DNA of 59,091 nt from positions 18,073 through 77,163 of the forward strand of contig JAZKAS010000013.1 in assembly GCA_040389005.1 (NCBI GenBank). The letters are read 5' to 3'. The stretch comes from Pseudomonadota bacterium. GTDB taxonomy: Bacteria; Pseudomonadota; Gammaproteobacteria; JAGOUN01. Made by a program: the position numbers and the translations under genes. Positions 51,167 to 58,963 of this stretch are shown here, piece by piece (within the stretch, counting starts at the first letter, position 1; each line of letters starts with the position of its first letter). The notes below the pieces were generated by a model. The model saw nothing but the letters and a program-made list of their open reading frames with translations. It was not told where the DNA came from and searched no databases.

Positions 51167-52363
51167 ATGAATGAAAATAGTGCCCTTGAGCAAGCGAATC
51201 AACCCATAGTTGTCAATAACGGCTTGGAAGGAGTCATTGTTTCTTCTACCGAAATTTCAGATGTCAATGGTGTGCGGGGTGAATTAGTATATGCCGGTTA
51301 CATGATGGAAGAAATTATTGAGCGGCAGTGTAGCTATGAAGATGTACTTTATCTTTTTTTAAGAAAAGAATTACCTTCTGAAAAAGCAAGTAAAGATTTT
51401 GCAAAAAACTTAGCCAGTAGGAGAAAGCTTTCTTCAGAGCTTGAAGCCATGATTGATGCAATCCCTAAAAATTTAGATTATATGGATGCATTTAGAACTG
51501 GAGTTTCTGCGTTAGGCTGCGAAATAAACACGAGTTATCCGCCGACAGAAGAACAGGCTCTCAGTCTTATTGCCAAAGTGCCAATCATTCTTAGCCGTTA
51601 TTTTAGATTAAAAACTAAACAAGAGGTTTTACAGCAAAATCCAAATTTTTCACATGTTGCAAACTATCTTTATTTATTAACAGGACGTTTGCCTGATACG
51701 CTTTCAGGCCAAGCCTATGCTAAGGCGCTTGACACCTATTTTGTTACGACTATTGAACATGGCATGAATGCCTCAACCTTTACTGCTCGAGTTGCTGCTT
51801 CCACACAATCTGATTTAATCTCTTCCATAGCAGCAGCAATCAGTACTTTAAAAGGCCCTTTGCATGGTGGTGCGCCATCAGAGATTATTCATATGTTAGA
51901 TGCTATTGGAACTCAAGAAAATGCAGAGCCTTGGATACGCAATGTGCTTGAGCAAGGAGGCAGATTGATGGGGTTTGGTCATCGTGTTTATAAGTCGTAT
52001 GACCCTAGAGCAAAGGCCTTGCAAAAAGTTGTTGAAGCCTTGCCGCATGATGATGGTAATGAATATTTAGCATTGTGTCGTCATGTTGAAAAAGTAGCTA
52101 TTCAACTTTTAAACGAATATAAACCAGGAAGAAATTTATATCCAAATGTTGAGTTTGGTGCTGCCGCTGTCCTCAGGGCAGTTGGTTTGCCTGCTGAGCT
52201 TTATCCGGCCACATTTGGAGTGGCGAGATGTGGTGGTTGGGCGGCGCATATTATTGAGCAATCTCACAATAATCGTTTAATTCGACCTTCATGTGTTTAT
52301 ACAGGAAAGTGGCCGCAGACAATTTTAGATAGGAAAAAATTAGAGATGTCTGAAGTCAGCTAA
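51167..52363 (+). CDS. Citrate synthase, short (about 400 aa) type, or 2-methylcitrate-synthase-like
   Basis: Signature GFGHRVYKSYDPRA, HGGA and catalytic His/Asp context. Confidence 0.9.
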   Translation: MNENSALEQANQPIVVNNGLEGVIVSSTEISDVNGVRGELVYAGYMMEEIIERQCSYEDVLYLFLRKELPSEKASKDFAKNLASRRKLSSELEAMIDAIPKNLDYMDAFRTGVSALGCEINTSYPPTEEQALSLIAKVPIILSRYFRLKTKQEVLQQNPNFSHVANYLYLLTGRLPDTLSGQAYAKALDTYFVTTIEHGMNASTFTARVAASTQSDLISSIAAAISTLKGPLHGGAPSEIIHMLDAIGTQENAEPWIRNVLEQGGRLMGFGHRVYKSYDPRAKALQKVVEALPHDDGNEYLALCRHVEKVAIQLLNEYKPGRNLYPNVEFGAAAVLRAVGLPAELYPATFGVARCGGWAAHIIEQSHNNRLIRPSCVYTGKWPQTILDRKKLEMSEVS

Positions 52364-52397
52364 CAAGTGCAGCTCGGATGTGTATTGTTAAGATGAA

Positions 52398-58284: not shown

Positions 58285-58963
58285 AAGTCAAAATAATTTT
58301 ATGCTTGGAGTAAGAGACTCTTACCCAGTGTGTATTGCTTTTTTGTTCATGTGCATTTCTTTTGGTGGGCTTGCAAAAACGGTAGGCTTGTCATTAATGC
58401 AGACTATGAGTATGGCGATGATGATATATTCCATTCCTTTGCAAATATTTTTGATAAGCTTAGCTAAAAGCAACTTAGTATTGTCGACTATCGTTATGTT
58501 AACATTTGTTATTAATGCAAGATTTTTTTTAATGTCCTTGTCTCTTGTTCACCGCTTCAAAGGTGTTAGTTTGACAAAAACTATTCCAGCTTTATTAATT
58601 TTAAGTGCCTCTTCATTTACAGTGGCGCATGTAAAATTTTTAAATGAAGATATTGAGCGGCCATTTAACTATTATGTTGGGGTTGCGTTATCTGCTTATG
58701 TAATGACGTTCTTTTCTACACTAGCAGGATTTTATATTGCGTTTATTAATGATAGTGTTATTTTATATCATGTTTTCTCTATAGCCTTGGCTATTCATTT
58801 TACAGCATTAACAGCCATTAGATTTCCCAATATTAGGTTGATTGTGGCGACTATTTTCGGCTTTGCAATGCTTCCACTTCTTTCACCCATAGTGACTCTG
58901 AATATTAATATATTAATATCTCCATTTGTGGTTGCTACTATTATGTTGTTGACAAGAAAATAA
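58268..58963 (+). CDS. AzlC family (branched-chain amino acid/azaleucine-type) exporter subunit
   Basis: Polytopic protein with a family-like N-terminus (G.RDS.P......F..SFG.LA...GLS). It overlaps the acnA end. The start could be 58250, 58268 or 58301. No azlD follows. Confidence 0.75.
   Translation: MASQNKSQNNFMLGVRDSYPVCIAFLFMCISFGGLAKTVGLSLMQTMSMAMMIYSIPLQIFLISLAKSNLVLSTIVMLTFVINARFFLMSLSLVHRFKGVSLTKTIPALLILSASSFTVAHVKFLNEDIERPFNYYVGVALSAYVMTFFSTLAGFYIAFINDSVILYHVFSIALAIHFTALTAIRFPNIRLIVATIFGFAMLPLLSPIVTLNINILISPFVVATIMLLTRK

Follow-up and report, generated by a model that had tools for sequence, protein, structure and literature searches.

Known Systems and the Present Locus

The early pathway to FR-900098 proceeds by a homologation like that of the tricarboxylic acid (TCA) cycle, with FrbC, an aconitase and an isocitrate dehydrogenase (IDH) (PMC8942020), and aconitase is also known to dehydrate homocitrate (PMC3556520). 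Here, we describe a locus that recalls this chemistry in a 59,091-nucleotide stretch of DNA from a gammaproteobacterium (assembly GCA_040389005.1, contig JAZKAS010000013.1, positions 18,073 to 77,163; hereafter the window). Positions 51167-58963 of the window encode a short citrate synthase (CS), a condensing enzyme of the HMGL family fused to a cupin domain (HMGL-cupin), an AcnA-type aconitase and an AzlC-family membrane protein. We found that these genes belong to a larger cassette, which probably represents horizontally acquired specialised metabolism that reuses TCA chemistry, and not central metabolism.

In the early FR-900098 pathway, FrbC is a homologue of homocitrate synthase (HCS), FrbA an aconitase, FrbB an IDH homologue and FrbJ a hydroxylase dependent on iron and 2-oxoglutarate. 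This pathway resembles the cassette in that an HCS-like enzyme and an AcnA-type aconitase occur together in a secondary-metabolite cluster, where they mimic the reactions that citrate synthase and aconitase carry out in the TCA cycle; FrbJ is also the closest match of the cassette oxygenase. However, the cassette has neither a phosphoenolpyruvate (PEP) mutase nor an IDH homologue, and its condensing enzyme is fused to a cupin. It adds a CitA-like CS, a glutamine amidotransferase, a carrier of the SLC25 family and AzlC/AzlD. Because there is no PEP mutase, the substrate should not be phosphonopyruvate. Pms and Pmi of phosphinothricin biosynthesis likewise pair an HCS-like enzyme with an aconitase. 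The initial annotation of the window had recognised the logic of chain elongation in a condensing enzyme followed by an aconitase, and precedents exist in FrbC/FrbA (PMC8942020) and in the action of aconitase on homocitrate (PMC3556520).

The gene cluster PA1211-PA1221 of Pseudomonas aeruginosa shares another part of the cassette. We took the retrieved locus L030 as this cluster by its gene-for-gene order and annotation, not by locus tags. PA1217 is an HMGL-cupin protein (46% identity over the full length), PA1214 is AsnB-like (32% identity to the 532-amino-acid (aa) protein of the cassette) and PA1213 belongs to the TauD family (42%). However, genes for a methyltransferase, an AMP-ligase, an A-PCP didomain, a thioesterase, PhyH and an MFS protein are further members of the Pseudomonas type, which lacks AcnA, citrate synthase, SLC25 and AzlC/D; by Pfam, no methyltransferase, AMP-ligase or A-PCP/thioesterase gene was found in the genomic island that carries our cassette. 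PA1217 consumes acetyl-CoA and yields no 2-isopropylmalate (bioRxiv 10.1101/577908), which fits an HCS-like specificity.

Gene Content and Conserved Synteny of the Cassette

An open reading frame (ORF) check found all five ORFs of 51167-58963 exactly where they had first been placed:

51167..52363, + strand: citrate synthase CS2, 398 aa (PF00285, 8.5e-115)
52398..53675, − strand: 425-aa protein with two strongly hydrophobic segments (hydropathy), without a Pfam or NCBIfam family
54164..55549, + strand: HMGL-cupin synthase, 461 aa (Pfam, PDB profiles, models and fold searches)
55549..58284, + strand: accessory AcnA-type aconitase (AcnX), 911 aa (NCBIfam AcnA)
58250..58963, + strand: AzlC-family membrane protein, 237 aa (PF03591, 6.4e-22)

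The stop of the HMGL-cupin gene and the start of acnA share TAATG at 55549, and azlC starts 35 nucleotides (nt) inside acnA, in agreement with the overlaps noted earlier. These three genes had been taken as the operon. They are coupled as described, but the unit is larger and runs on past azlC, beyond the window. The window is exactly one contig of scaffold C13 and is bounded by gaps of 10 N at C13:18063-18072 and C13:77164-77173. Past the scaffold gap lie, in order, a small hydrophobic AzlD-like ORF, a 532-aa AsnB-like protein, a 330-aa TauD-family oxygenase, a 294-aa SLC25 carrier and a further short citrate synthase, CS3 (410 aa). After CS3 follow a protein of the fatty acid (FA) hydroxylase family, a 636-aa orphan and an MFS gene.

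The synteny of the block was then compared in relatives. On the metagenomic contigs L026/L027, which hold an HMGL relative of 81% identity, the cassette is one compact eight-gene operon in the order CS, Mito_carr, HMGL, AcnA, AzlC, a 116-aa gene, AsnB-like and TauD; the identities to our proteins, in the same order, are 51, 49, 81, 68, 66, 56, 63 and 68%. The locus L032, with an HMGL relative of 64% identity, keeps Mito_carr, CS, HMGL, TauD, AsnB-like, AzlC, AzlD-like and FA hydroxylase genes, and no AcnA was found within 10 kb. A terminator-like hairpin with a 10-bp stem follows CS3 in our genome. Because of the synteny with L026 and L032 and because of this hairpin, we read the unit as running from HMGL-cupin through CS3. 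The transcription unit is thus most likely composed of HMGL-cupin, AcnA, AzlC, the AzlD-like gene, the AsnB-like gene, an FrbJ-like oxygenase dependent on iron and 2-oxoglutarate (Fe/2OG), the SLC25 carrier and a CitA-like CS, and the CS2 of the window is a further CitA-like copy upstream of it. Among the contexts examined, AcnA, a CitA-like CS, SLC25 and AzlC/D were confined to this island and the loci most closely related to it.

The gene at 52398..53675 had been called an orphan membrane-protein gene. Pfam did not match it to any family, neither L026 nor L032 encodes a homologue, and it was therefore rejected as a conserved member of the cassette.

The HMGL-Cupin Enzyme and Its Family

The HMGL-cupin protein is composed of a homocitrate-synthase-like TIM barrel (residues 1-316) and a putatively metal-binding cupin (residues ~330-457; DNA 55136-55546). 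Both domains had been named from the sequence, and both were recovered by profile and by fold. For the N-terminal domain, homocitrate synthases were the best matches by sequence (6KTQ, 8e-85; 3IVS) and also by fold search. The structure models of the protein have a predicted local distance difference test (pLDDT) score of 84-85.

In the family alignment A1, R12, E13, H195, H197, H72, R133 and T135 are invariant in 21 members and common to 6KTQ and 3IVS. The columns of H72, R133 and T135 are His, Arg and Ser/Thr in HCS, whereas they are Leu/Ile, Glu and Phe/Gly/Ser in the 2-isopropylmalate synthases (IPMS) and methylthioalkylmalate synthases compared. Homocitrate synthases (LysS/Lys20/NifV; 6KTQ, 3IVS, 2ZTJ) are therefore alike in the LREGxQ motif, in the Glu/His/His metal ligands and in the His/Arg/Ser-Thr columns. 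However, a cupin here replaces the C-terminal regulatory part, and there is no lysine or nitrogenase context.

The protein missed the homocitrate synthase equivalogs (TIGR02146, 279.6 vs 413.55; TIGR02660, 236.5 vs 462.9) as well as the LeuA-type equivalog (best 294.8 vs 517), and it has no LeuA_dimer domain. Profile searches for LeuCD and LeuB gave no match in the genome, which extends the absence first noted for the region alone. We rejected an ordinary LeuA or CimA on these grounds: the protein is below all equivalog cut-offs, the cupin replaces the regulatory domain, the columns are of HCS type, and there is no LeuCD/LeuB. A beta-lactone cassette of the belactosin/cystargolide type was also considered. 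It was rejected as a family match because CysA from such a cassette proved to be a normal IPMS that shares 58% identity with the LeuA of its host (PMC10776993), and because the island has no methyltransferase or AMP-ligase.

The C-terminal ~130 residues carry invariant His/Asp motifs and match a small-cupin profile (6J4B, 1.3e-6). The model of this domain (pLDDT 85) is a monocupin that is nearest to the MarH epimerase, the iron epimerase/lyase 7EQK, KdgF and oxalate decarboxylase. The family counts 213 representatives among 1.84 billion proteins and occurs as free-standing (130-150 aa), tandem (~290 aa) and HMGL-fused forms. The free-standing and tandem forms argue for a catalytic or ligand-binding role of the cupin itself. 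This cupin domain family appears to be uncharacterised so far.

Full-length relatives of the HMGL-cupin protein (44-54% identity) were found in Streptomyces, Kitasatospora, Pseudomonas, Xenorhabdus, Serratia and Acinetobacter. We examined the contexts in P. aeruginosa, Serratia, Streptomyces and metagenomic contigs. Of ~17 informative loci with a full-length HMGL-cupin gene, almost every one includes an AsnB-like gene within 10 kb and the majority also a TauD gene, and none of the HMGL-only loci has either gene. The present locus holds this core of HMGL-cupin, AsnB-like and TauD genes, which is conserved across phyla.

Two genomes of the same genus (G004:C56, L047:5671-9740; G002:C91, L048) encode an HMGL-cupin protein of 40% identity after two ThiF genes and an alpha/beta-hydrolase gene, with no AsnB or TauD. 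This ThiF-type setting suggests that HMGL-cupin is a reusable module.

The Accessory Aconitase and the Short Citrate Synthases

The genome examined is 1.70 Mb in size and 89% complete. By profile search, it has three citrate synthases, two AcnA proteins and one HMGL protein. A housekeeping type-I gltA lies on contig C29 (767 bits vs an equivalog cut-off of 485) and a housekeeping AcnA on contig C21 (1392 vs 945). Two isocitrate dehydrogenases elsewhere in the genome both score as true isocitrate dehydrogenases; one is a prokaryotic NADP-IDH on contig C39. Because separate housekeeping gltA, acnA and icd exist, the citrate synthase and AcnA of the window are extra copies. The view that the module does not serve the housekeeping TCA cycle had depended on finding such copies, and it is supported here by the two genes on other contigs, by the distance between the two AcnA proteins and by the missing island in the same-genus genomes examined.

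The other IDH is of the ICDH_alpha/PRK09222 type (C34:1452-2903, on a 3.7-kb contig; 618 vs a cut-off of 509). With this second IDH, citrate synthase, aconitase and IDH are all multi-copy in the 1.7-Mb genome.

The accessory protein is a full-length AcnA, as had been supposed; it scores 1144 against a cut-off of 945 for the AcnA equivalog TIGR01341. It is 46% identical to the housekeeping AcnA and far apart from it in the tree. The alignment showed that the Fe-S Cys ligands and the catalytic residues are intact (ITSCTNTS, GYGCTTCVGN, VIDH, GTDSHTTM, GNRNFEARIH and RRGN). However, GSARDW replaces GSSRDW in the accessory AcnA and its L026 orthologue only, and the other 17 AcnA proteins compared keep GSSRDW.

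In the maximum likelihood (ML) tree, the accessory AcnA and the L026 orthologue form a clade with 100/100 support and a stem of ~1.0 substitutions per site, separate from the housekeeping AcnA. This pair nests in a group of eight with 100/99 support; wherever the context of a member could be retrieved, the gene was part of an accessory cassette with a CS. The sister AcnAs (93/89) come from cassettes of CS, class-V aminotransferase, MFS, AMP-ligase, AcnA, TauD and GNAT, and two more members of the 100/99 group from cassettes of PrpF, CS, a pyridoxal phosphate (PLP) enzyme, MFS, AMP-ligase and AcnA. Based on the identities of 46% for AcnA and 31% for CS and on the tree, a recent duplication of acnA or gltA within the genome was rejected.

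The sister-clade cassettes lie on metagenomic contigs or contigs of metagenome-assembled genomes (MAGs) (L034:4452-14517, L035:962-11034 and L130:944-10537). They encode, besides PrpF in some cases, a citrate synthase of 455-477 aa with an N-terminal extension, a class-V/SelA-like PLP enzyme, MFS, AMP-ligase and AcnA, sometimes with TauD and GNAT. They look like an undescribed citrate- or aconitate-derived pathway.

CS2 had been described as a citrate synthase of roughly 400 aa of the 2-methylcitrate-synthase-like type, and this description holds. PF00285 spans positions 1-357 of 357, the motifs GPLHGGA, EHGMNAS and GFGHRVYK are present, and the best NCBIfam match is 'citrate synthase II/2-methylcitrate synthase', below its cut-off. 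CS2 is 61% identical to CS3, and the short synthases are 31% identical to the housekeeping gltA. Glu replaces the catalytic Asp (Asp375 of the pig enzyme) in the short synthases (PNVEF in CS2, CS3 and the CS of L032; PNLEF in that of L026), whereas gltA retains Asp. The best PDB match of CS2 is CitA of Bacillus subtilis (2C6X, 2.5e-100), which also has Glu (TNVEF). This minor citrate synthase of B. subtilis is alike in its short form and in the Glu-for-Asp exchange at the catalytic base, whereas here the enzyme is, judging from the sequence, duplicated inside an accessory cassette of a gammaproteobacterium. The closest relatives form a tight metagenomic clade, followed by CitA-like proteins of ~50% identity from Legionellales and Coxiella MAGs and from Bacillales.

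Transporters, Amidotransferase and Oxygenase

AzlC scores 78.9 against a Pfam cut-off of 32.1, so its family assignment stands, whereas its score for the NCBIfam equivalog, 35.5 against 332, falls far short. An orthologue of 66% identity has the same position in L026. The AzlD-like ORF is hydrophobic and conserved in position (56% identity to L026), but Pfam did not recognise it as AzlD, and the scaffold gap truncates it.

The SLC25 carriers of the island, MC1 and MC2, both match PF00153 (Mito_carr). We aligned MC1 to UCP1 and mapped the contact point of MC2 via MC1 and the orthologues. Contact point II is 'RT' in the cassette-linked carrier MC2 and its two orthologues, and 'RD' in MC1; RT marks the carboxylic-acid class and RD the amino-acid class (PMC6769469). 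A PDB search with MC2 gave no match.

SLC25 carriers also occur in fungal itaconate clusters, which consist of cadA, the SLC25 tricarboxylate carrier gene mttA and mfsA. These clusters are alike in that a carrier is co-clustered with enzymes that divert a TCA tricarboxylate to a secreted acid. However, they are eukaryotic, with a real mitochondrion and other enzymes, whereas here the carrier lies in a bacterial operon.

Both AsnB-like proteins of the island begin with Met-Cys, and Cys2 is the nucleophile. This start indicates glutamine-hydrolysing amidotransferases and not proteins like beta-lactam synthetase; because of the Cys2 glutaminase nucleophile, a beta-lactam synthetase was rejected. 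The TauD-family oxygenase has the HxD...H motif, and its nearest solved structure is FrbJ (6.5e-26).

The Low-GC Island

The cassette lies in an island of 28.5 kb, which extends from a tRNA-Met gene (after rpoD) to about C13:89500. With a GC content of 0.355, compared with 0.396 for the genome on average (z = −3.2), this island has the lowest value of all same-size windows in the genome. The region 51167-58963 had been called AT-rich. For these 7.8 kb alone the deviation is weak (GC 0.361, z = −1.7; 7% of same-size genome windows equal or lower), but for the whole island it is strong. The features at the borders are as follows:

42859..42935, + strand: tRNA-Met (CAU), found by ARAGORN; left border of the island, beyond which GC falls
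43039-43347, + strand: RelE-family toxin (Pfam RelE, 7.9e-28), directly after tRNA-Met
43384-43716, + strand: HTH_3 antitoxin-like gene (Pfam HTH_3, 1.5e-8)
58966..59091, − strand: putative fragment of a P4-type tyrosine integrase gene, 42 codons, GC 0.58, between the azlC stop and the 10-N gap

In the same-genus genome G002, the distance from rpoD to the post-island genes is 10.9 kb, compared with 28.6 kb here, and none of 20 island proteins was matched in its interval downstream of rpoD. Island genes were also not found downstream of rpoD in G001, G003 and G004, where the contig of G003 stops ~1.7 kb past rpoD. The island is thus adjacent to a tRNA gene, deviant in composition and absent at this site in the same-genus genomes examined. 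No tRNA-derived att repeat of at least 12 nt was found, and by Pfam there is no intact integrase nearby, only the fragment of 42 codons in the window.

The translation of this fragment is KIWIIPSSRMKAGREHRVPLSRAAMAVL. The claim that an integrase remnant adjoins the region is plausible: the sole Pfam match is Phage_integrase with E = 0.02, weak support with which the motif, mirroring that of the integrase on contig C32 of the same genome, is consistent. The last 128 bases of the window have a GC of 0.58 inside an island of GC ~0.36, so that either a mobile element joins the island here or the contig end is chimeric.

DotH/IcmK is encoded in the genome (C17:57212-57916, 8e-80), which indicates a type IVB (Dot/Icm) secretion system as in Legionellales and supports a Legionellales-like, host-associated lifestyle of the source organism. 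The 28.5-kb island is probably a horizontally acquired, species-specific metabolic island in a reduced, host-associated genome.

A second unit of four genes lies at 44403-48672 of the island:

47761-48672, − strand: 303-aa protein (Pfam/NCBIfam scans)
45957-47747, − strand: AsnB-type amidotransferase (Pfam, NCBIfam)
45199-45948, − strand: AspH/OlsC-like Fe/2OG hydroxylase (Pfam, NCBIfam)
44403-45254, − strand: SLC25 carrier MC1 with 'RD' at contact point II (Pfam, UCP1 alignment)

This unit parallels the theme of amidotransferase, hydroxylase and carrier in the main cassette. The FA hydroxylase downstream of CS3 is OlsE-like, so a link to lipids or amino-lipids may exist. Two orphan proteins with 3-4 hydrophobic segments bracket the cassette and are candidates for effectors or membrane proteins:

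48822..50807, + strand: 661-aa orphan with 3 hydrophobic segments, no Pfam/NCBIfam match
C13:83672-85582 (L007:17673-19583), − strand: 636-aa paralogue, 39% identical to the 661-aa orphan

Proposed Pathway and Alternative Explanations

We infer the substrates, step order, product and transport direction of the cassette as follows. The CitA-like synthase or synthases and AcnA, possibly with a genomic IDH, would generate or replenish a 2-oxo-dicarboxylate, for example 2-oxoglutarate, which the homocitrate-synthase-like domain would condense with acetyl-CoA to a homocitrate-type hydroxy-tricarboxylate. This compound would be dehydrated or isomerised by the accessory AcnA. The glutamine-dependent amidotransferase may then turn one carboxylate into an amide, and the Fe/2OG oxygenase may hydroxylate the product or an intermediate. 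The fused cupin would bind a metal and probably isomerise, epimerise or otherwise handle a 2-oxo acid or the product. Substrate and product would cross the membrane through the carboxylate-class SLC25 carrier and AzlC/AzlD.

The initial annotation had assigned fewer genes to the module and a simpler product to the pathway. The module also comprises an SLC25 carrier of the carboxylate type and another short citrate synthase, and the two IDHs elsewhere in the genome could provide the dehydrogenase step that the cassette lacks. Of the product, a hydroxy-tricarboxylate made outside the housekeeping TCA cycle, the non-housekeeping part stood. However, the larger unit always includes a glutamine-dependent amidotransferase and an Fe/2OG oxygenase, and the product is therefore probably amidated and/or hydroxylated, not a plain hydroxy-tricarboxylate. 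A bolder version, which we regard as speculative and unlikely to hold in full, is that an intracellular Dot/Icm bacterium has combined TCA-cycle chemistry, the HMGL-cupin enzyme and an SLC25 carboxylate carrier derived from eukaryotes in one operon, that this operon draws on the citrate or 2-oxoglutarate of its host or its own to build a new amidated, hydroxylated tricarboxylate, for instance a metallophore or a host-manipulating mimic of 2-oxoglutarate or homocitrate, and that PA1211-1221 carries out the same core chemistry.

Several points weigh against specialised metabolism by this route. That H72, R133 and T135 hold the distal carboxylate of 2-oxoglutarate is an assumption. AcnA is not essential to the core chemistry, because it is absent from L032 and from all cassettes of the Pseudomonas and Streptomyces types. 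AcnA and the citrate synthases keep nearly all canonical residues, so they could just make citrate and isocitrate. The cassette has no dedicated dehydrogenase or aminotransferase. Promoter and terminator scans gave counts at chance level overall, with the hairpin after CS3 as the sole meaningful-looking item. The continuity downstream of azlC crosses the scaffold gap with the integrase fragment beside it, and beyond the gap the first ~20 codons of the AzlD-like gene are missing; given the gap, the fragment and the shortened gene, this copy of the operon may be interrupted. PA1211-1221 itself is a quorum-regulated orphan cluster without an assigned metabolite (PMC13351317).

The same enzymes might instead be spare or condition-specific TCA isozymes, used for example under iron or oxidative stress in a host, with unrelated neighbours. 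AcnA does pass its equivalog cut-off and keeps its Fe-S and catalytic residues, CS2 is similar to CitA, a minor but functional citrate synthase of B. subtilis, and there is a second IDH in the genome. However, translational coupling ties acnA to azlC and to the gene of the HCS-like enzyme, L026 has the same eight genes in a single operon, the AcnA clade is confined to accessory cassettes where contexts could be retrieved, and the island genes are absent at this site in sister genomes. The long AcnA stem and the clade-specific change of Ser to Ala near the catalytic Ser further argue for a changed function, and we consider spare isozymes quite unlikely. Another alternative is a pathway to an amino acid. 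It would run through two rounds of 2-oxo-acid elongation, the first converting oxaloacetate to 2-oxoglutarate with CS, AcnA and IDH and the second extending this 2-oxoglutarate to 2-oxoadipate with the HCS-like enzyme, AcnA and a dehydrogenase of the IDH family, followed by housekeeping transamination; the resulting 2-aminoadipate would be amidated, hydroxylated and exported by AzlC/AzlD as a non-proteinogenic amino acid. AzlC/AzlD are known as amino-acid exporters, TauD-family enzymes often hydroxylate free amino acids, the glutaminase Cys of the AsnB-like protein is intact, two IDH-family genes are in the genome, and homocitrate is a substrate of aconitase in the aminoadipate pathway (PMC3556520). 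Yet an aminotransferase and a homoisocitrate dehydrogenase are both missing from the cassette, the two Iso_dh genes have the scores of genuine isocitrate dehydrogenases, and the contact point of the cassette-linked carrier is of the carboxylate and not the amino-acid type, which makes such a route unlikely.

In a further explanation, this Dot/Icm-bearing bacterium would inject its SLC25 carriers, perhaps together with the enzymes, as effectors that rewire the citrate or 2-oxoglutarate metabolism of host mitochondria. It would agree with the presence of DotH/IcmK, with the known SLC25 effectors of Legionella (LncP), and with the two SLC25 genes and two large orphan proteins of the island. We consider it improbable, however, because the carrier gene shares its operon with tightly coupled enzyme genes and with genes for polytopic membrane proteins of bacterial type (AzlC/AzlD-like), and because the enzymatic core also occurs in free-living Pseudomonas, Serratia, Xenorhabdus and Streptomyces. 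As for a phosphonate pathway of the FR-900098 type, in which homologues of FrbC, FrbA and FrbJ act on phosphonopyruvate, the trio of HCS-like enzyme, AcnA and FrbJ-like oxygenase is present, the oxygenase is nearest to FrbJ, and the pathway logic has been described (PMC8942020). However, no PEP mutase (PF13714) was matched in the genome at its completeness of 89%, in the annotated island or in the retrieved contexts of L026, L032 and the Pseudomonas type. It is very hard to believe in such a pathway here, and we rejected it.

Implications

Based on the specialised metabolism proposed above, HMGL-cupin proteins such as PA1217 should take a 2-oxo-dicarboxylate and not 2-oxoisovalerate. If this is true, it would account for the lack of isopropylmalate with PA1217 and could help to identify the product of the quorum-regulated cluster of P. 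aeruginosa. The AcnA clade is tied to dedicated citrate synthases, which would extend TCA-like homologation in secondary metabolism beyond phosphonates. Moreover, a 'mitochondrial' SLC25 carrier with a carboxylate-type site inside a bacterial biosynthetic operon would differ from the stand-alone, injected carrier of Legionella.

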